64,000 bases of DNA. Origin: an uncultured Verrucomicrobiae bacterium. Its GTDB lineage: Bacteria > Verrucomicrobiota > Verrucomicrobiia > Chthoniobacterales > UBA10450. The notes under the pieces were generated by a model that searched no databases, was not told the origin of the DNA, and was given only the letters and a program-made list of their open reading frames with translations. The number at the start of each line of letters is the position of its first letter. Within the stretch, counting starts at the first letter, position 1. The stretch spans positions 64,001 through 128,000 of the forward strand of contig CAVYXA010000003.1 of the NCBI GenBank assembly GCA_963772365.1, read 5' to 3'. The translations under genes were made by a program, and so were the position numbers. Shown one piece after another: positions 1-9,410 of the stretch.

Positions 1-1335
1 GAGATGGCACGATTTGCAATCGCTGGCTTGGATCGAGTTTTTCCCATCAGTAGCAACGTGTTTGCCATCGTGGCAACGGAAGCACCCATTCCAATTTTTG
101 TGACCGACAAAATCGGGGTGTGTGCGCCAATCGACTTTGACCTCCGGGAAAAAATTCGCGCGATAGATCTCCAGCGTTTCGTTGATGATGGGTCCGGACT
201 GGTCCGGATTGGGATAGGCGGCGCGAAGGGATCGCGCGATCCCGTGTTCGGCCTCTGCAGTGGTCGAATAAGATTTTACCAATGCCTCAACCACTTTGGC
301 TTTGACCCACGGGATTTTTGGATCGAGTCGCCCCGTGGAGAGGGCAAGATCGACAGCATCATTGGGTGTATGGACGTTATGTGCCGGCCTGCTGTGACAA
401 TCCATGCAATCCATTCGTCGGATGTGATACTTGGACGGGTCGCCGGTGAATTCCGGAGTGTGATAAACCGTAACAACGCCATTCGAATCCGTCATTCGCA
501 CCCAGGGAATATCGAGAAGCTGATTGTCTGTCGCAATGTACTCGATTTTCTTCGAAATGTTCATGTGCCAGTGAATGCCGCCAACAGGCCCATTGGCCGG
601 ATCGCCACCGCCGACATTTAGCAAAAGTCGCACAGCAAAGGGCGTGTTGTGTTCATCCGAAAGGTAATGCTGAAATGTACGATCGACATACCCGACATAT
701 CTCTTAGGCCAGTGGCATTGCTCGCAAATCGCTTGGGTCGGGCGCGGATTGGCGGCGGTCATGTGGATGGGGCGCTCGAAATCGTTGCGAACAGTATGAT
801 AGAGCTGTTTGACGCCGTTTACTTTTGTCCTGAAGTAGGCGGTTGCGCCAGGACCGACATGGCAGGCCACGCATTCCACTCTGGCATGCGCCGTGTGCTG
901 CGAAGCGACGAACTCCGGCTGCATCGGAAGGTGACAAGCCTTACCGCAAAATTCCACCGATTCGCTGAATTGATATGTTTGATAACTGCCGAACGCGCTC
1001 AGAAATAAAAATCCAGTGCTGGCGGCGGCGAAGATCATCAGGATTCTGCGGTCTCGCGGCCGGGAGAGATCGATGGTGATAGCAAAAGGAGCCGCGGCCT
1101 TTTCCGCTCGACGTTCCTTACGTGACTGCCAAAAAGCGCCAATTAGTGCGAGTAGGATACCGAGAACAAAAAATCCCGGCGCGACAACATAAGCGAGAAT
1201 GCCAACGTAGGGACTGCGGCGGGCCGCAAAAACATCGATGGCAAAAAGCAGAACAAATGAGAAGAGCGCACCGACAGCAAGGACAAGCCCAGCCCAACTA
1301 ATCCAATTCCGGAAGTGGCGCCTCAGGGAAGGCAT
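1..1335 (-). CDS. NapC/NirT-family membrane-anchored multiheme cytochrome c (3' end runs off the window)
   Basis: Not in the ORF track. Manual minus-strand translation from ATG 1335 (MPSLRRHFRNWISWAGLVLAVG...) gives three hydrophobic segments, then SVEFCGKACH, HARVECVACH, ICEQCHWP, GGIHWHM, MDCMDCHSRPAH, GCFRCH and DCKSCH. The start and positions 1-21 share one frame. Confidence 0.88.
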   Translation of the reverse strand, partial: MPSLRRHFRNWISWAGLVLAVGALFSFVLLFAIDVFAARRSPYVGILAYVVAPGFFVLGILLALIGAFWQSRKERRAEKAAAPFAITIDLSRPRDRRILMIFAAASTGFLFLSAFGSYQTYQFSESVEFCGKACHLPMQPEFVASQHTAHARVECVACHVGPGATAYFRTKVNGVKQLYHTVRNDFERPIHMTAANPRPTQAICEQCHWPKRYVGYVDRTFQHYLSDEHNTPFAVRLLLNVGGGDPANGPVGGIHWHMNISKKIEYIATDNQLLDIPWVRMTDSNGVVTVYHTPEFTGDPSKYHIRRMDCMDCHSRPAHNVHTPNDAVDLALSTGRLDPKIPWVKAKVVEALVKSYSTTAEAEHGIARSLRAAYPNPDQSGPIINETLEIYRANFFPEVKVDWRTHPDFVGHKNWNGCFRCHDGKHVATDGKNSIQASDCKSCHL

Positions 1336-1356
1336 CGTGCGATCTTCTCAGGCGAT

Positions 1357-1424
1357 TTGTAGCCACGGCCCGGTGGGCCGTCATCGCTTGGGAAACGCAT
1401 CACGCGGAGATGTACCGGCTACAA
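1357..1424. repeat. REP-like palindrome
   Basis: TTGTAGCC...GGCTACAA terminal inverted repeat with an internal GC hairpin, intergenic. Confidence 0.55.
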
Positions 1425-1426
1425 CT

Positions 1427-1756
1427 CTATTTCTTGAATGAACGAATGTAGGCGACGAGCGCCTTGATGTCGGCATCAGAAAGCTTGCTGCCAAACGGCT
1501 TCATCGTCTCCTTGCCGTTGGTCTTTACGCCTTCCTTGATCGCCCTTTCGGCCTCTGCATCGGTGAATGCTGCCTGAACTTTTGGATCGCGATAATCCTT
1601 AATGTTCAATTTTTTGCCCATCATGGTGCTCCCGCTGCCGTCTTTCCCGTGGCACGATGCGCAGTTTTGTGTCCAGAGCGCGCCAGCATCCGCCGCAAAA
1701 TCAACGCCAGCTGATGCAATGACGACCGTCATTACGAGGAATATTTTTTGTTTCAT
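1427..1756 (-). CDS. Class I monoheme cytochrome c (c553/c6-like)
   Basis: Signal peptide, CASCH motif, distal Met (TMKPF), C-terminal LSDADIKALVAYIR helix. Confidence 0.92.
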   Translation of the reverse strand: MKQKIFLVMTVVIASAGVDFAADAGALWTQNCASCHGKDGSGSTMMGKKLNIKDYRDPKVQAAFTDAEAERAIKEGVKTNGKETMKPFGSKLSDADIKALVAYIRSFKK

Positions 1757-1836
1757 AAGTTAGAGGCCTTTCTTAAACAGGAGCTTCGAAGCGCAAGATT
1801 CAATTTTTCTTCGAATAGTAGGTTGGACCCGGCTGC

Positions 1837-2166
1837 CTATTTCTTCAGCGTCCGCACGTAAGCGACCAGCGCTTTAATTTCGTCGTCGCTTAATTTCCCG
1901 CCAAAAGCTTTCATCTTCATCTTGCCCTTTTCCTTCACGCCGTCCTTAATCGCCGTCGCCGCTTCGGCATCGGTAAATCCGGCCTGGACCTTCGGATCGG
2001 TCAGATCCTTTGCATTCAATATCTTGCCCATTTTTGTGTCGGCGCTCCCGTTCTTGCCATGACATTGCACACAGTTGGTGTCCCAATTGGTCTTTGCATC
2101 TGCGGCAAAACTCACGGTTGGAAACACGAGAACGCTGACGCTGAAAATTGCGAGGACTGTTTTCAT
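1837..2166 (-). CDS. Class I monoheme cytochrome c, paralog of 1427-1756
   Basis: Start reassigned to MKTVLAIF (ATG 2166). Signal peptide, CVQCH, KMKAF, LSDDEIKALVAYVR. Confidence 0.92.
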   Translation of the reverse strand: MKTVLAIFSVSVLVFPTVSFAADAKTNWDTNCVQCHGKNGSADTKMGKILNAKDLTDPKVQAGFTDAEAATAIKDGVKEKGKMKMKAFGGKLSDDEIKALVAYVRTLKK

Positions 2167-2197
2167 CTGGATATCACCCCTGGAGTTTGACTTGGCT

Positions 2198-4369
2198 TTA
2201 GAAACGAAATTGCAAACCGGAATAAATCGAATGCGCTTCGTAATTATTGTGCCCGCCCGAAGCGTCATCGGTATAGTTAAAATACGCGTATCTCACTACG
2301 AGGCGCATCTGCTTGGTGAGCTCGCGACTGATACTCGCCGAGACAGTGTGTTCAGTCGCGCCCATGCCGTAGGGCACTGAGGCCTCGATGTTATTCACGT
2401 AATCGTTTGCCCGGTAATAGGTATACTCGGCATGCAGTTCCGTTTTATTGTCGATGACGAAACCGGCGCCGCTGGTCACGGTCCAATAATCGTTTTGGAA
2501 ATTCAGAACAGTAGGAGCGTCATCCGTCACGATGATATTGCTCGCGGGAGTTTTAGTTTCGTCGAGGACATAGGAAAGTGTGCCTTGCAGGTAAAGGCGC
2601 GGCAGAGGGTTCCACGTCAGCGTTTCACCAATGACATGACGGGTAATCCAGGCACTGTCCGTTTGGTCTAGCCAGATCCCGGCAGGATCGATCCCCCACC
2701 TGCCGCTCACGTCAGTCTTCATAAAATCGTAGCGGGTTGTCAGGGAAAGCGTTCCCAGCCAAGACGGGATGTTCGGCCGGTAAGTCATTCGAATATTGAA
2801 ATCATTCGTCCTCCAGTCCTGGCTGAGGAGTCTCTGGTTTGAACCAGTCAGGTCCGTCTTGATATCGTTGTCGTACTCTGCTGCCTTGTAATAGTACTGG
2901 CCCGACAGGCTGAGTCCCGGCAGAGCATACCAGTTTGAGCCGATGGTGTATTTTTGACCCAACAGAGAGGTATCCTTGTTCAGCACTCCCTCGTCATCTC
3001 CGTCGGAAATTGCATGCTCGTGCACGGTCCCGTTTTCCTCGGTCCATTCGCCTTCAGCCCAGAAAAGCCAGTTGTTGATTCCCGTATAACGGGCCTCAAA
3101 CCGCTCCGCGAAGTTGTCGAAGTCTTGCGAAGTATCGGCCGACTCCAAGGTCGGCGGGAGAAGATTTCTGGACATATCTGTGTTCGTGCTCAAGAAAGTG
3201 GACCAGCTATCCTCGTCCTCGCGAGTATAACGGAACCCGCTGAGCAACGTAAGATCCTTTACAGGCATCCAGTAAAAATTGGCATTGAAAACATGCTCAT
3301 CCACCTGGGAGGTACCGGCCAGGGTGAGAAAGCCTTCATCGCGAAATTGGATATTGGGAAAGGGCCCGAACATGGAATTGTAATCGGATCCATAAATACG
3401 ACTGCCTGAAATGTCGCTTCCGAGTGTTGTATAAGAGTAACCTGCAGTGAACAAGAGCCTATCGCTCAGGCGTGTCTCCGTCATCGCGTGCCCGCTGAAT
3501 AGATCGAGATCGGTCTGATCGCGCTGAGTGACAAATCGATGAGCCATTGGGTTACCGACACCGCGCTGGAGCTGCAGTCGATCATCGTTGTTGTTATGTT
3601 CATAGCGCATCCCAAGATCGATGTCGGTGTTACCAAATGTCTTGGACGCGTCGAATGAGAAAATATCGCGCGTCTCGTCGATGTTGCGAAACGCCGGTGC
3701 GATCTTGCGTGGCGAGCCAATTCCGGGCACTGTCGTGTCGCCCCAGCTCGTCGACTCCTTGTCCCCATTTCGAAACTCGTGCGAATAATGAATCGTGATC
3801 TCGGGCCACTCGGGCATGCGCAAACCAAGTTCCACCCAGGCAATGCCGCGATCGAGCGTAAGTTCGGGATCGGGCGGCGGGATAAATGCTCCGCCGTCAG
3901 CCGGAGAAAAACCGCCATTGCCGTCATACCAGCTCCGAAACTCGGTGTATCCGCCGCGGATGTACCCCAGGCCCGGCTGAGACAAATCGATCGTCACATC
4001 GTAATCGTCGTTGTCAAAAATGGCGTGGCCGTCGACCGTTAACGTTGCGTTCTTGCCGAGGGTCCGTTCCAAATGGAGATCTTGGATGCCGCCAAAAACA
4101 TCACCCGAGATGCGGTGTTCTTGTTTAAATTGCGCCGCGTCGCCATTGATAATATTTCCCCCGACCCCCAGCTCAATCCAATCGTTGTACTCGGGCGTTT
4201 CTTCCTCTGCTGTTGCGTTGCTCGCAGTGGATTTTCCGTCCGCTGTCGCTGTTCCATCGGGTGTCATTCCAGCGCGCAACGAATAATTTGCGCAAACAAG
4301 GACACACATGAAGACCGCAAGCTTGCGCGCGAACCGAGGCCCGCCAGCTGAGAAGCAAATCTCGCTCAT
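2198..4369 (-). CDS. MtrB/PioB-like outer-membrane beta-barrel porin
   Basis: About 720 aa with a signal-like N-terminus, alternating amphipathic beta-strand pattern and terminal Phe (GLQFRF). Lies directly downstream of the multiheme cytochrome. Confidence 0.82.
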   Translation of the reverse strand: MSEICFSAGGPRFARKLAVFMCVLVCANYSLRAGMTPDGTATADGKSTASNATAEEETPEYNDWIELGVGGNIINGDAAQFKQEHRISGDVFGGIQDLHLERTLGKNATLTVDGHAIFDNDDYDVTIDLSQPGLGYIRGGYTEFRSWYDGNGGFSPADGGAFIPPPDPELTLDRGIAWVELGLRMPEWPEITIHYSHEFRNGDKESTSWGDTTVPGIGSPRKIAPAFRNIDETRDIFSFDASKTFGNTDIDLGMRYEHNNNDDRLQLQRGVGNPMAHRFVTQRDQTDLDLFSGHAMTETRLSDRLLFTAGYSYTTLGSDISGSRIYGSDYNSMFGPFPNIQFRDEGFLTLAGTSQVDEHVFNANFYWMPVKDLTLLSGFRYTREDEDSWSTFLSTNTDMSRNLLPPTLESADTSQDFDNFAERFEARYTGINNWLFWAEGEWTEENGTVHEHAISDGDDEGVLNKDTSLLGQKYTIGSNWYALPGLSLSGQYYYKAAEYDNDIKTDLTGSNQRLLSQDWRTNDFNIRMTYRPNIPSWLGTLSLTTRYDFMKTDVSGRWGIDPAGIWLDQTDSAWITRHVIGETLTWNPLPRLYLQGTLSYVLDETKTPASNIIVTDDAPTVLNFQNDYWTVTSGAGFVIDNKTELHAEYTYYRANDYVNNIEASVPYGMGATEHTVSASISRELTKQMRLVVRYAYFNYTDDASGGHNNYEAHSIYSGLQFRF

Positions 4370-4377
4370 AACATTAA

Positions 4378-5217
4378 TCAAAATCTGAGATGCTCACTGA
4401 CTTGAGAGCCATGAACCGCTTCGTGGCAGCCGGCCGACCAGCAGGTTCCTTGCTGCAGGAAACTGGAATGGTCGCGCTCTCCGATCAGAATTTGGCCGGA
4501 AGAAGTCTGCTGCTCGAAATGACATTTCAGACAGAGCGTCTGGTTCCGTTCGTTTAACATTCGTTGATTCACCGAGCCGTGCGGCGAGTGACAAACCGTG
4601 CACCCGTCGCGTAATGCTTCGTGCTCCCAAACAAACGGGCCGCGTTGCGCTGTGTGGCATTGAAAGCAGGTCTCGTTTTCGCCCAGGAAGGCAATACCGC
4701 CGCCCTTGAGGGTTTGTTGCATGCTGGTCCCGCCACCTTTAATGGCCCTTCCCTGATGGGGATTGTGGCAATCGACGCAGCTCATTTTGCCTTCCAGCAC
4801 CGGGTGATGATGTGGCAATTCAAAACTCGCGCGCACTTCGAGGTGACATTGGAAACACGTTTGGGGATCGCGGCGTGGATTTACGATCGTGTGCGCTGCG
4901 CCTCCGCTCTGGACATGCAGGCTTCCAGGGCCGTGGCAGGATTCGCAGCCCATTTCTTTAGCGTTGTCGCCTTTCGCTAAAAGGCGGGCGTGAGTAGCCG
5001 TCTTAAAGTCGCGGGTGATTTCACCGTGGCATGCGTCACACGCATCGGAACCGACGAACTCCGCACCGGGAATACTAGGAGGTGCCAGAATCGTGCGATT
5101 TGTCTCGAAGCTGCTGCAAGAAAGCAGAACGACGGTAAGCACGGCTGCTCCCCCCGCGCCCCAGAACAGTTTTTCGCGCTTACCGTGCGTCCATCGAATT
5201 AGCCTCGAATGCCACAC
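4378..5217 (-). CDS. MtrA/DmsE-like multiheme cytochrome c (7 CxxCH + 1 CX4CH), probable lipoprotein
   Basis: CDACH, CESCHGPGS, CFQCH, CVDCHNPH, CFQCH, CTVCHSPHGS, CLKCH and CWSAGCHEAVHGS; GPFVWEH motif; lipobox-like LLSC. Confidence 0.9.
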   Translation of the reverse strand: MWHSRLIRWTHGKREKLFWGAGGAAVLTVVLLSCSSFETNRTILAPPSIPGAEFVGSDACDACHGEITRDFKTATHARLLAKGDNAKEMGCESCHGPGSLHVQSGGAAHTIVNPRRDPQTCFQCHLEVRASFELPHHHPVLEGKMSCVDCHNPHQGRAIKGGGTSMQQTLKGGGIAFLGENETCFQCHTAQRGPFVWEHEALRDGCTVCHSPHGSVNQRMLNERNQTLCLKCHFEQQTSSGQILIGERDHSSFLQQGTCWSAGCHEAVHGSQVSEHLRF

Positions 5218-5232
5218 GAGAATGGAGTGTTG

Positions 5233-5275
5233 CGGAAAATATGAGACGGCGACTACGCATTTTTACGGAAAATAT
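5233..5275. promoter_or_regulatory. Direct repeat CGGAAAATAT x2 (33 bp period), candidate regulator site
   Basis: Identical decamers at 5233-5242 and 5266-5275, just upstream of the cytochrome operon. Confidence 0.35.
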
Positions 5276-5296: not shown

Positions 5297-5686
5297 TTAT
5301 CCGGGACTGCTTCGAGCGCTGCCCGCACGGTATTCAGTCGGCGATTTTCCTGACAACTTTCTGAACACACGGTTGAATTGTGAGAGCGATTGGAATCCGA
5401 CTGCAAACGCGATTTCGCTGATGCGAAGATCGACTTCGTGCAGGAGAAGATTGCACGCTCTTTCAAATCGCGTTCGGGCGACGTACTCGACAAAGTTTAT
5501 GCCAGTCACCTGTTTGAACTTTTCACTTAGATAATTTGCGCTGATGTTGACCGCCTTTGCGACTTGAGTCAGCGATAGCTCTTCGCCGGAATGCGCGTGG
5601 ACAAAATTACGCGCTTTCCAAATTTCCACCGGCTCGGCCCGATTTTGATTCTCCGTAACCGACTTGAATTGATTTGCGGAACTCAT
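5297..5686 (-). CDS. AraC-family regulator, DNA-binding domain only
   Basis: LSLTQVAKAVNISANYLSEKFK and ISEIAFAVGFQSLSQFNRVFRK; GGAGG upstream of ATG 5686. Confidence 0.9.
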   Translation of the reverse strand: MSSANQFKSVTENQNRAEPVEIWKARNFVHAHSGEELSLTQVAKAVNISANYLSEKFKQVTGINFVEYVARTRFERACNLLLHEVDLRISEIAFAVGFQSLSQFNRVFRKLSGKSPTEYRAGSARSSPG

Positions 5687-5886
5687 CACCACTACCTCCA
5701 CAAATCACTTTGGCTTGGGTTCGGGCGTTCACGCTGGTCGTTGCTTGGCAATTACCCGCCGAATCTTGGGCCGGTCGGCAAACAGCTGTTTTTGGCCTGC
5801 GCAATTTTTGCAAAGCAAAACGCAAGCGAGCGATAGCGGGGGCTGATCGGCCCGCATTGATCTGGGCGCACTAAGAGGGGGCAAAT

Positions 5887-6007: not shown

Positions 6008-6931
6008 CTAGGCGGTTTTGCTTTTGTGCTTGCTCGAAGATAGGTGCGCCCGGAAATCGCTCGGCGATTGTCCGAACACGCGTTTGAAGGTGCGATTGAA
6101 TTGGGTGAGCGATTGAAATCCCACATCATAGGCAATCTCGCTGATACGCAAGCTAGGGTTGAGTAATCGCGTGCGCGCCTCTTCCACTCGCACGCGCGCG
6201 ACGTAATCGGTAAACTTCAGGCCGGTAGCTTTGTGGAAAATTTTACAGAAATGAAAAACGCTCGCGCCTGCTGCCTTCGCGACATCCGCCAGCGACAGTT
6301 CTTCGGCCTTGTGCTTGTCGATGTAATCGCGGGCCCTAAGCACGAGCGGCGGTTCCGAGTTGTTCTTCTCTGTTACCAATTGATTGCATAGGGCAGAGAG
6401 TTGAGCGGCAAAAAAAGCCAGGAGCCGGACCACGGCATTATATCTATCGGGCGGGATGAACGGATTTTTTTCCCACGCTTTGCGAAGGTCACTGCGAAAG
6501 CGGAGTCCACATCGCTCCAGCTCTCGCGTCACTTTGGTTGCATCGGTTTTGGCCGGGGTGTGACGCAAAACCTGGCCGATTCGAAGGTATCCGATCGTCT
6601 CTGCGCCCAGTTTCACCGGTACAGCCGTTTCGGTTAGGCCGAAAGGACAGGTGACAGTGCGCGGCAGGTCGCCAGTGTGCTGGATCATGTCCTCGTGCGC
6701 TTGCAAGCAAACCGCCAGGGTCTTTGGTTGTTCGGCAAGTAAGGCGCAGAACGGGTTCTCGTGTTTTTTCCCACGATGTGCCAGTTGCCAAAATTCCAGC
6801 GGACGCAGAGTCAACGGCAAGCCGGTCGCTTTCGTAAAAACGTTTTCGTAATCGCGAAACAATCGCGACCGTCGCAACATGTCGATCAGTTGCTTGTTTG
6901 AATCGGCGTAGTTGTTCGTGAGCTCAGCCAT
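6008..6931 (-). CDS. AraC-family regulator with PocR-type sensor domain
   Basis: FTKATGLP, ENPFC, TCPFGLTETAVPV and GYLRIGQV in the N-terminal domain; AraC double HTH at the C-terminus. Confidence 0.88.
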   Translation of the reverse strand: MAELTNNYADSNKQLIDMLRRSRLFRDYENVFTKATGLPLTLRPLEFWQLAHRGKKHENPFCALLAEQPKTLAVCLQAHEDMIQHTGDLPRTVTCPFGLTETAVPVKLGAETIGYLRIGQVLRHTPAKTDATKVTRELERCGLRFRSDLRKAWEKNPFIPPDRYNAVVRLLAFFAAQLSALCNQLVTEKNNSEPPLVLRARDYIDKHKAEELSLADVAKAAGASVFHFCKIFHKATGLKFTDYVARVRVEEARTRLLNPSLRISEIAYDVGFQSLTQFNRTFKRVFGQSPSDFRAHLSSSKHKSKTA

Positions 6932-6984
6932 GCATGCTGTCGAAATGTTCTTCCAGCCGAAATTTAGCGTCAATCCGTATCTTG

Positions 6985-7519
6985 TTACTGGTCGCAAAAT
7001 CGGGGCTCGAGAACGACCGGCTCAAGAGTCGCACCGTGAATGTAGAGCGACAGCATTTTTCGGCGCGCAGCCTGCAAGCGTTTTACCATCACGGGGCTCA
7101 TCCGTTTTAGGAGTTCGTAACCAAGTGAGTGGTCTCGCTCGCAGTACCTCGCGCAGGATTGTCCCATAAAAGAAGATCGCGCGAGTCGGTTCGACTGCGC
7201 GCGCGGTGAAATGCCAGACGTAAGGCGGAAACATCCAGGACCAGCCCAGCAAATCACCCGGACCAATCATCTCGACGATTTTCGCATCGCCAAATCCTTC
7301 TCCTGACTCGAGGACGACTTTACCGCTTTCGATCAAGTAGAACCGGTTTGCCAACTCGCCCTGACGCAAAATGGTTTGCCCTTTCTTGGAGTGGACAGGA
7401 ATTGCGCATTCGGCCAACAGCGCCAGTTGTGTCGAGTTCATTCCCGCCAAAAATGGATGCAGCGCCACCCGTATCCCGATCGGTTCCCGCTGTGTTGTCG
7501 TTTCGATTTTTGTCAGCAT
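6985..7519 (-). pseudogene. Cyclic-nucleotide-binding (Crp/Fnr-type) domain protein, frameshifted at ~7147 (possibly a sequencing error)
   Basis: GQTILRQGELANRFYLIESGKV and GPGDLLGWSW. Removing one base gives LREYCERDHSLGYELLKRM, continuing in ORF 6985-7266. Confidence 0.8.
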
Positions 7520-7538
7520 ATTTTCTCCCGGTCTTTAG

Positions 7539-8036
7539 TTAGGCGAATTCGTGCTCCTTCTCGCGCACGATCAGCACCGGACAAGGTGCTGCGCGAGCGA
7601 CGCGTTCGGCCGTGCTCCCGATCGCAAAATGTTTCCAGCCGGTGTAACCGTGCGTGGCGATTACAATTAAATCGACATCGTGGTCTTTGGCCGCTTCGAC
7701 GATTTCGTAAGCAGGCAGACCGGTTCGAATGCCTTACTCGACGCGCTGGACTCCGGCTGTGCGGGCCGAGCTCGCCAGCTTATTCAATCGATTCGTGCAC
7801 TTCGCGTCGATCCAGTGGGAAATTGGTGGCGACGCGATCATGAAACCATCAAAAGCCTGCGGTATCTCCGGCTCGACTACGTGAAACAGATGCACCGCGG
7901 CATTAAACTCTCGCGCAAGTTTGATTGCGTACTGGAGCGCCTTTCTTGATAGCGGAGAAAAATCCACCGGCACCAGAATTCGTTTTAATGCGATTCCGGC
8001 GGCGCTCGTTCGGGACAGCGTTTCCTGCGTTTTCAT
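7539..8036 (-). pseudogene. Universal stress protein with in-frame TAA at 7734-7736
   Basis: KRILVPVDFS before the stop. The same frame continues IRTGLPAYEIVEAAKDHDVDLIVIATHGYTGWKHFAIGSTAERVARAAPCPVLIVR to TAA 7539. Confidence 0.85.
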
Positions 8037-8192: not shown

Positions 8193-9410
8193 ATGAAGAA
8201 CAGCATCACGTCCGGCCGAGCCGGCGCATTTTCTCGAAAAAAGCTTCGATCTCAGACAAATGGGACACGAAAACAAACGCGAGCACGCGATCATATTTTT
8301 ACCCTCGGCATTGAAGAAGAATTTCAGATCGTTGATCCGAAGACGCGCGAGCTGCGGTCGCATATTCAACAGATTCTTGCTGATGGGAAAATGTTCTTGA
8401 AGGAACACGTGAAAGCCGAGATGCATCAGTCCATGGTCGAGCTCGGTACCGAAATTTGCACCGACACAGCGGAGGCGCGGCGACAAGTAACTGAGCTTCG
8501 GAGCGAGCTGGCCAGAATTGCCGAACTCGAAAGACTCAAGATTGCTTCGGCTGGCACGCATCCGTTTTCGCATTGGATGAATCAACGGATCACGGCCGAT
8601 GAACGCTACACCACCATCGTCCAGGACATGCAACAAATCGCTCGCGCGAATCTGATCTTCGGTCTGCACGTGCACGTGGGCATTCCCGACCGTGAAGAAG
8701 CGATCGACATTATGAACCAGGCGCGTTACTTCCTGCCGCACCTTTACGCGCTCTCCGTCAACTCGCCGTTTTGGTTGGGCCAGGACACAGGATTGAAGGC
8801 TTATCGGCAGATGATTTTCGAGCGTTTCCCGCGGACGGGCATTCCCGACGCGTTCGAAAGTCTCGGCGAATACGAAGACTACTTGAAGCTGCTCGTTTCG
8901 ACCAATTGCATCGACAACGCGAAGAAGATCTGGTGGGACATCCGGCTCCATCCATTTTTTGACACGATCGAGTTTCGGATTTGCGATGCCCAATCGCGAG
9001 TGAACGACACGATCGCGCTCGCGGCGGTGATGCAGGCCATCGTGGTCAAATTACACAAGCTTCGTCGGCAGAACGTCACCTTCCGCAATTACCCTCGACG
9101 GCTAATCGATGAGAACCGGTGGCGAGCCGGGCGTTACGGTCTCGATGGCAAACTGATCGATTTCGGACGCAAATGCGAAATGGACGAGCGCGAACTGCTG
9201 CACGAGATGCTCGAGTTTATTGCATTGGAGGTGGATGAGCTCGGCACCTGCTCCGAGATGGCGCACATCGAACGGATCATGCGCGAAGGCACCGGAGCCG
9301 ATCGGCAATTAGCGGTCTGGAAAAAGACACACGACGTGAGGGCGGTGGTCGATCATATCGTAGGCGAGACCTACCAAGGGCTACAACTGACGGCAGCGAA
9401 ACCTGCCTAG
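8193..9410 (+). CDS. YbdK/GCS2-family carboxylate-amine ligase
   Basis: FTLGIEEEFQIVD, AGTHPFS, FGLHVHVG, NSPFW, IWWDIR, TIEFRICD, ENRWRAGRYG. Confidence 0.92.
   Translation: MKNSITSGRAGAFSRKKLRSQTNGTRKQTRARDHIFTLGIEEEFQIVDPKTRELRSHIQQILADGKMFLKEHVKAEMHQSMVELGTEICTDTAEARRQVTELRSELARIAELERLKIASAGTHPFSHWMNQRITADERYTTIVQDMQQIARANLIFGLHVHVGIPDREEAIDIMNQARYFLPHLYALSVNSPFWLGQDTGLKAYRQMIFERFPRTGIPDAFESLGEYEDYLKLLVSTNCIDNAKKIWWDIRLHPFFDTIEFRICDAQSRVNDTIALAAVMQAIVVKLHKLRRQNVTFRNYPRRLIDENRWRAGRYGLDGKLIDFGRKCEMDERELLHEMLEFIALEVDELGTCSEMAHIERIMREGTGADRQLAVWKKTHDVRAVVDHIVGETYQGLQLTAAKPA

Follow-up and report, generated by a model that had tools for sequence, protein, structure and literature searches.

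We report that five genes at the start of the DNA analysed here, a window of 64,000 nucleotides (G000:C3:64001-128000) from the 90% complete genome of an uncultured Verrucomicrobiae bacterium, very likely encode a porin-cytochrome conduit, and we lean towards a mainly outward flow of electrons through it, from quinone to cell surface. The genes occupy positions 1-5217 in window numbering, which is used throughout unless a prefix is given, and continue past the window start. All five open reading frames (ORFs) are open, intact and co-oriented on the minus strand, as the preliminary description of this DNA had it; the gaps between them, taken in order from the gene for an octaheme cytochrome to that for an ImcH-type cytochrome, are -4, 31, 80 and 91 bases. 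The records of relatives are titled Verrucomicrobiae or Chthoniobacterales, in keeping with the verrucomicrobial host already proposed. That description saw a complete wire from quinone pool to surface with an Mto-like architecture; the porin-cytochrome conduit and its quinone-interacting partner stand, the Mto-like architecture does not.

The octaheme gene (4378..5217, minus strand) encodes a protein of 279 residues with eight heme motifs, seven CxxCH and a terminal CX4CH, a pattern shared by 113 of 115 homologs. The alignment also shows eight other histidines, each conserved in 114-115 of these sequences and together sufficient for bis-His ligation of all the hemes. The lipobox cysteine after the signal peptide is invariant in all 115 aligned homologs, and the protein is therefore likely to be a lipoprotein. 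A phmmer search relates it to MtrA (6R2Q_A, E 2.4e-25), and in the alignments motifs 1-2 fall on hemes 1-2 of MtrA, motifs 3-8 on its hemes 5-10; this suggests that a two-heme unit was lost. The MtrA-like multiheme cytochrome of the preliminary description is thus right as to homology, with eight motifs rather than ten. We rejected its assignment as a decaheme of the DmsE/MtrA family on this motif count and on its score against the DmsE model TIGR03508 (165.5 bits versus a cut-off of 192.2), and it also falls below the cut-off for the GSU2203 model; the MtrA homology stands regardless.

The second gene (2198..4381, minus strand) encodes a 727-residue protein that AlphaFold models (pLDDT 84.4) as a plug-less barrel of 26 long strands. 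Its best structural match is MtrB (6R2Q_B; Z 21.8, rmsd 3.6, 574 residues aligned, 14% identity), which Foldseek also ranks top (E 2e-15), and TonB receptors score Z 17.3 or less with an rmsd of 5 or more. A TonB-dependent receptor, with 22 strands and an N-terminal plug, was considered and discarded, as the barrel has 26 strands and the first of them begins at residue 30 of the mature model. A plugged channel had been named as the result that would undo the conduit, and in the predicted structure the conduit survives. The barrel has no Pfam or NCBIfam match at 0.001, and PF11854 (MtrB_PioB) matches neither the barrel protein nor anything else in the genome, which by this test places the barrel outside the MtrB/PioB sequence family; the profile check proposed earlier for the DmsE/MtrA and MtrB/PioB families was therefore negative for both proteins. 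Among 34 barrel homologs, one matches PF11854 at E 0.005 and eight match the GSU2204 model (best 4.6e-6). Since profile searches of the barrel against Protein Data Bank (PDB) sequences gave nothing significant, its link to MtrB rests on the fold.

The octaheme is predicted to sit inside the barrel. The modelled complex scores 0.90, against 0.00 for the best control, and this mark is attained by 116 of 157 solved pairs and by 2 of 215 mismatched pairs; because the similar MtrAB complex has already been solved, the score should be read as likeness and not as binding. The separate runs share at least 85% of contacts with partner pLDDT values of at least 84. In the predicted complex the octaheme touches 22 of the 26 strands, largely at alternating residues, and its last heme motif contacts a barrel hairpin with a long loop (residues 173-188), on the side that, judged by loop lengths, would be the outer face. 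In three distant relatives (L048, L049 and L050), the barrel carries an N-terminal monoheme domain of the planctomycete type (PSCyt1, best E 6e-16), and the genomes of all three have no ImcH match.

The last gene of the five (1..1335, minus strand, extending 132 bases before the window start) encodes a cytochrome of 488 residues with three predicted transmembrane helices and seven heme motifs, one CX3CH and six CxxCH; a membrane-anchored cytochrome with at least six such motifs had been noticed previously. Three helices, one CX3CH and six CxxCH are the features by which ImcH is defined (Zhong and Shi 2018, PMC6295460). The order of the parts, with the helices at the N-terminus and the CX3CH ahead of the six CxxCH, agrees as well, as does the length of about 500 residues. 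The motifs start at residues 130, 155, 204, 310, 418, 440 and 478, compared with 132, 156, 205, 311, 428, 448 and 486 in ImcH of Geobacter sulfurreducens (GSU3259); the first four thus differ by 1-2 residues and the last three by 8-10, and the helices fall at matching places. A study of ImcH names H137, Q179, E127, K173 and Y188 (10.1101/2023.05.03.539133). By position, at an offset of -2, the first four correspond to H135, Q177, E125 and K171 here, which are invariant in 17 of 17 homologs, so that the glutamine as distal residue of heme 1 and the conserved glutamate and lysine of the quinol site are all present. By profile, the best solved match is NrfH (E 0.0011). Assignment to CymA or ImoA was rejected, as those are tetraheme proteins and this is a heptaheme protein with three helices. 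We infer that the membrane cytochrome is of the ImcH type and would oxidise menaquinol, for which the genome has pathway genes (family PF02621). In Geobacter, ImcH takes electrons from menaquinol and hands them on to cytochromes of the periplasm (10.1101/2023.05.03.539133).

Between the barrel and the ImcH-type protein are encoded two class I monoheme cytochromes c of 109 residues each (1837..2166 and 1427..1756, both on the minus strand), putative periplasmic shuttles. The former matches Cytochrom_C at E 6.9e-12; the latter is its paralog, about 60% identical, with Kuenenia c-552 Ks_3358 as its closest solved relative (E 5.5e-11). A residue census finds one histidine in each, together with C-terminal methionines, and ligation is probably His/Met. 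MtoD is a bis-His monoheme protein (PMC4412085), and the single histidines led us to reject an MtoD assignment.

The octaheme gene lies directly upstream of the barrel gene in 8 of 8 loci compared and in all 30 loci of a phylum-wide search, our own included, and the cluster is therefore not a chance arrangement. The preliminary description had set co-conservation of the genes as a test of the conduit, which holds across these loci. Of 401 genomes from the phylum, 29 match the barrel profile and 24 of these also ImcH; in one family (f19) the identical 20 of 35 genomes carry both. Twenty regions of at most 20 kb, chosen from barrel-positive genomes for locus comparison, contain ImcH in 16 cases and a CbcL-like protein in four (L061, L062, L064 and L065). 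The CbcL-like proteins adjoin imcH, have 11-13 heme motifs and a cytochrome b561 domain, and are split into two genes in L061 and L062. In another genus (L060), the entire gene order is repeated through to the SCO gene described below.

Within the host's own family we sampled 146 genomes, each at least 90% complete. The barrel is patchy, being present in 51; ImcH occurs in 41, of which 38 have the barrel. A nonaheme cytochrome encoded beyond the window start is found in 27 genomes, all 27 barrel-positive, and subunit I of a ba3-type oxidase encoded beside it in 28, of which 26 have the barrel. Seven genera have the oxidase and are mixed for the barrel; in these, 21 of the 22 matches to the oxidase are in barrel-positive genomes. 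As the genomes are kin, Fisher tests overstate these associations and we rely on the counts and the within-genus contrasts. Four genomes have ImcH or the ba3-type subunit without the barrel, and none of the four has an octaheme match; three of them are fragmented.

Inspection of the genes beyond position 1 reveals a larger respiratory cluster than first described, with seven more co-oriented respiratory or accessory genes. On the same strand, the ImcH-type gene is followed by a 390-residue ORF and then by genes for a Rieske protein, a fused cytochrome b, a membrane-anchored nonaheme cytochrome c, a small membrane subunit, CoxB with a cytochrome c domain, a ba3-type CoxA, and SCO (Rieske to SCO, L001:5667-12390, equal to G000:C3:55667-62390, 1.6-8.3 kb before window position 1). 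The fused cytochrome b has a PEWY motif. The second box of the Rieske protein, CPCHDGRF, is without the serine and tyrosine that raise the potential, a signature that we take to be that of menaquinol-oxidising complexes. Subunit I of the oxidase is closest to ba3-type structures (7DEG, E 2e-177; Thermus ba3, E 5e-109; A-type at best 1e-11), and by this sequence comparison the enzyme is a B-family (ba3-type) heme-copper oxidase. B-family oxidases have a high affinity for oxygen. A variant of the cluster lacking ImcH is seen in L008, L009, L054, L086, L087, L089, L091 and L092, where a second type of bc complex, its cytochrome b fused to a monoheme cytochrome c, is encoded on the opposite strand.

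Directly upstream of the conduit lies the gene for a small AraC-family regulator (5297..5701, minus strand; HTH_18, E 5.8e-25), and between the two is a conserved 16-bp site (5253..5268, minus strand; consensus CCGwAAAAATGCGTAG), some 50 bases upstream of the start of the octaheme gene. Outside the window, the Rieske gene is preceded by another copy. When 6.69 million positions of the genome are scored with a matrix derived from ten relatives alone, the octaheme site ranks first (38.9 bits) and the Rieske site second (30.9), with the next hit at 17.4; column-shuffled matrices reach 20.0 at most on this contig. When the 16-bp core is scored across relatives, counting values of at least 14 (background 0.37%), it is found before the octaheme gene in 28 of 44 rows, 11 of which are training sites or their duplicates, and in 17 of the 23 other own-family rows; it is absent from all ten rows of other families, in which the AraC neighbour was not found either. 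The core also precedes the first type of Rieske gene in 6 of 18 rows and, inverted, the second type in 7 of 8; before CoxB, ImcH and ResB the counts are 0/17, 0/27 and 0/34. The small AraC regulator holds the same position in most own-family loci and is likely to activate the conduit. Further upstream, a second AraC-family protein (6008..6997, minus strand) combines HTH_18 with a PocR sensory domain (Pfam, E 1.5e-16); it also occurs in L054, lies beside the cluster in only some relatives, and is a candidate partner regulator. In seven intergenic regions searched with consensus boxes, neither a Fur box (within 6 mismatches) nor an FNR box was found, and a CRP-like match with 2 mismatches lies before imcH. 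Scans for sigma-70 promoters and terminators gave no excess over shuffled sequence (6 versus 10.0 and 17 versus 18.4). Upstream of the regulators (7022-8036) are ORFs for a cyclic-nucleotide-binding (CRP/FNR-like) protein and a universal stress protein; in relatives, too, genes of both kinds are found close to the cluster, as would fit a gene island for low oxygen.

The surroundings of the cluster show signs of rearrangement. A 1397-bp segment comprising the 3' end of imcH and the 390-residue ORF (C3:62783-64179) has a duplicate with 97.8% identity 275 kb away (C3:339404-340800), which may be a genuine rearrangement or an effect of assembly; the second copy is followed by genes for ResB and CcsA, which in relatives are found inside the cluster. 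The gap before the Rieske gene holds a 3' remnant of a gene for a GltD/SudA-like Fe-S flavoprotein (L001:12557-12849); the 5' part of that gene is found at the second site, on the far side of ccsA (G000:C3:331686-332063), and an intact copy exists at L078:7407-8834. The arrangement is reminiscent of the bc complexes of anammox bacteria, which have NAD(P) oxidoreductase subunits. The 390-residue ORF itself (L001:12785-13957) has a lipoprotein-like start and accompanies ResB/CcsA in most loci. It has no Pfam or NCBIfam family, and its nearest named clusters are PsbP/DcrB-like, which is to be taken as a lead only (score 0.90, 108-121 shared features); a function as a cytochrome c maturation or assembly factor is possible. 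Paralogous GCS2 glutamate-cysteine ligase genes with a DNA identity of 68.5% stand on both flanks (8298-9374 and G000:C3:54501-55577). Elsewhere in the genome (G000:C3:530276-542403, C3:557858-559618, C1:60565-62304 and C1:153038-158282) are genes for alternative complex III, for a cbb3-like subunit I that is spread over several frames, and for two A-type oxidases, as well as one resembling formate dehydrogenase whose in-frame TGA possibly stands for selenocysteine. An additional multiheme cytochrome-like gene, apparently broken over several frames, lies at G000:C1:287069-288646.

We suggest that the wire would run mainly outward when oxygen is scarce. In our model, the ImcH-type cytochrome would oxidise menaquinol, the two small cytochromes c would ferry the electrons across the periplasm, and the octaheme inside its MtrB-shaped barrel would deliver them to acceptors able to reach the mouth of the barrel, such as Fe(III) or humic quinones. 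The wire would be one branch of a low-oxygen respiratory module in this family: the Rieske/cytochrome b/nonaheme complex and the ba3-type oxidase probably tap the same cytochrome c pool, and this bc-to-ba3 branch beside the wire would scavenge the last oxygen. The neighbouring AraC protein probably binds the shared 16-bp site and so switches on both operons.

Outward flow is the likelier direction because the membrane cytochrome carries the features published for ImcH of Geobacter, which oxidises menaquinol, and among bacteria capable of extracellular electron transfer ImcH is reported only from Fe(III) reducers (PMC6295460). The view that direction cannot be read from the sequence was too strong: ImcH and the CbcL-like partners of some relatives tilt the balance outward, the direction in which Geobacter employs both ImcH and CbcL, and uptake stays in play through the linked ba3-type oxidase. 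It is the core with ImcH that is widespread, since a close ortholog of the ba3-type oxidase is present in none of the 26 barrel-positive genomes of other families (six matches, 29-32% identity). RuBisCO was not found in this 90% complete genome; nor were NiFe hydrogenase and bd oxidase. Fe(III) respiration is reported in the phylum, for Limisphaera (PMC13608581).

Several observations weigh against outward flow. Across this 90% complete genome, a census of CxxCH motifs finds just five proteins with at least three motifs, plausible frame or not, and none is like the surface cytochrome MtrC, as the preliminary description had noted for the locus. An ImcH match is missing from 13 of the 51 barrel-positive genomes of the family, and two (G335 and that of L009) combine conduit, cytochrome c, bc complex and ba3-type oxidase without ImcH, which suits uptake. 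Y188 of ImcH corresponds to F186 here, a match made by offset and not by direct alignment to GSU3259. The potentials of His/Met monohemes usually lie above those of bis-His multihemes, and transfer from cytochrome c to the octaheme would therefore be uphill. The host appears aerobic, having two A-type oxidases and alternative complex III, and its locus is rearranged, with maturation genes located elsewhere. Finally, a quinol oxidase does not fix the direction, because ImoA, a quinol-oxidising NapC protein, is described from the Fe(II) oxidiser Sideroxydans (10.1101/2022.01.10.475773).

The conduit could instead be a reversible 'redox battery', from which electrons dumped on humics or Fe(III) in anoxic spells are retaken via cytochrome c to the ba3-type oxidase once traces of oxygen return. 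This would fit the co-occurrence of barrel, ImcH, nonaheme and ba3-type oxidase in 23 of the 146 genomes, the distance of less than 20 kb between oxidase and barrel in 15 of the 26 genomes where the two occur together, the single 16-bp site before both operons here and in five other loci, and the ability of Mtr-type conduits to conduct both ways (PMC6295460). However, two independent low-oxygen branches explain the co-inheritance and co-regulation equally well, the site was not found directly upstream of CoxB (0/17), and we regard the battery as possible though rather doubtful. The same tentative standing applies to its extension, that a single co-regulated module lets common aerobic verrucomicrobia of soil (Chthoniobacterales) use humics or iron as a rechargeable battery, the wire feeding the high-affinity ba3-type oxidase on the return of oxygen.

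Uptake alone, as in Mto systems, would carry electrons from Fe(II) or reduced humics through the octaheme and cytochromes c to the ba3-type oxidase, which would supply a heterotroph with additional energy; ImcH or the bc complex would then run uphill. The absence of a surface decaheme from the census, the near confinement of the oxidase to barrel-positive genomes (26/28), the persistence of cytochrome c, the bc complex and, in two genomes, the oxidase in versions lacking ImcH, and the NAD(P)-type oxidoreductase (GltD/SudA-like) gene that precedes the Rieske gene in six related loci all speak for it. We nevertheless judge it unlikely, given that the most widely conserved core (octaheme, barrel, cytochrome c and ImcH) comes without the oxidase, that 25 of the 51 barrel-positive family genomes have no ba3 match, that RuBisCO was not found, and that the locus has neither a decaheme nor a bis-His monoheme like MtoD. 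It is improbable that the wire conserves no energy at all, serving as an overflow valve for redox balance, in reductive iron acquisition or in sensing, or that it is decaying in this genome. The patchy distribution (51/146), the 1397-bp duplication and split oxidoreductase gene at the locus, and the report that ImcH is electroneutral by itself (10.1101/2023.05.03.539133) would agree with such a role; against it, none of the five frames is broken and all heme ligands are conserved, no Fur-like box was found in the intergenic regions searched, and the neighbours are respiratory rather than iron-uptake genes. The mainly outward wire remains our preferred reading.

The porin-octaheme pair has a precedent. 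He et al. 2017 (PMC5615132) predicted such a complex in Verrucomicrobia and listed homologs from Opitutus and Ca. Udaeobacter, and the prediction is repeated in He et al. 2019 (PMC6344600). Like ours, the 2017 complex places a porin of at least 20 strands that does not match MtrB by sequence beside an eight-heme cytochrome, and outward transfer, to humics, is proposed there too; the locus very probably belongs to it, matched by description and not by sequence. Unlike the passages of the 2017 text that describe the complex, we name ImcH, the monoheme shuttle, the bc complex, the oxidase and the regulator, and some of the 2017 clusters include an extracellular cytochrome, which this locus does not. 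The porin-octaheme pair had thus been predicted for Verrucomicrobia before; what we add is its pairing with ImcH, the bc and ba3 module inherited along with it, and the 16-bp site common to both operons. A search of titles and abstracts, in which subscription papers are thinly covered, found no paper joining ImcH, this porin and the oxidase in Verrucomicrobia.

The conduit is likened to Shewanella MtrAB (6R2Q) in its predicted working, through barrel fold, cytochrome homology and the modelled cytochrome-in-barrel assembly, yet it belongs to neither MtrAB nor Mto. It has eight hemes instead of ten, a lipid anchor, a CX4CH terminal motif and a barrel that is 12-14% identical and below detection by Pfam MtrB_PioB; MtrC is missing, and ImcH replaces CymA. 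With MtoABD-CymA/ImoA of Sideroxydans and with PioAB, it shares a porin-cytochrome pair without MtrC, and a monoheme and a NapC-family protein in the cluster. The comparison with Mto nevertheless fails on the octaheme in place of a decaheme, on single-His monohemes in place of bis-His MtoD (PMC4412085), on a heptaheme ImcH-type protein with three helices in place of tetraheme ImoA, and on the host, where RuBisCO was not found. The inner-membrane side resembles Geobacter sulfurreducens ImcH (GSU3259) in its three helices, motif spacing, His/Gln heme 1 and conserved glutamate and lysine, and the CbcL-like neighbours of some relatives recall Geobacter CbcL. In Geobacter, however, ImcH is partnered by triheme Ppc shuttles and Pcc/Omc conduits, here by monohemes and a pair with the MtrAB fold. 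The survey of Zhong and Shi (PMC6295460) reports that mtrAB or mtoAB were not found next to imcH; here imcH is co-encoded with a pair of the MtrAB fold and with monohemes.

Other members of the phylum offer parallels by description. A 2026 peat preprint (10.64898/2026.05.27.727921) describes EET3 and EET4, Mtr-like clusters from two other orders of Verrucomicrobiota that are transcribed in peat; these too are sequence-divergent porin-cytochrome clusters, but they were selected for extracellular cytochromes, and the main text of the preprint does not mention ImcH, NapC or Chthoniobacter. Limisphaera, from another order, reduces Fe(III) and has porin-multiheme cytochrome loci in which a lipoprotein cytochrome stands beside a one-heme porin and a six-heme membrane cytochrome with three helices (PMC13608581).

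Chthoniobacterales rank among the abundant bacteria of soil and are considered aerobic heterotrophs. About one third of the family genomes sampled (51/146) encode the barrel, and because standard MtrB models miss it, surveys would undercount the exchange of electrons between soil bacteria and minerals or humics. The cluster joins an outer module of the Shewanella type to an inner module of the Geobacter type, a pairing absent from the 2018 survey as reported, and provides every component predicted for a path between quinone and surface, together with a probable regulator and its site. It also shows that the outer membrane may be spanned by a wire with two hemes fewer, a lipid anchor and a CX4CH heme at its end.

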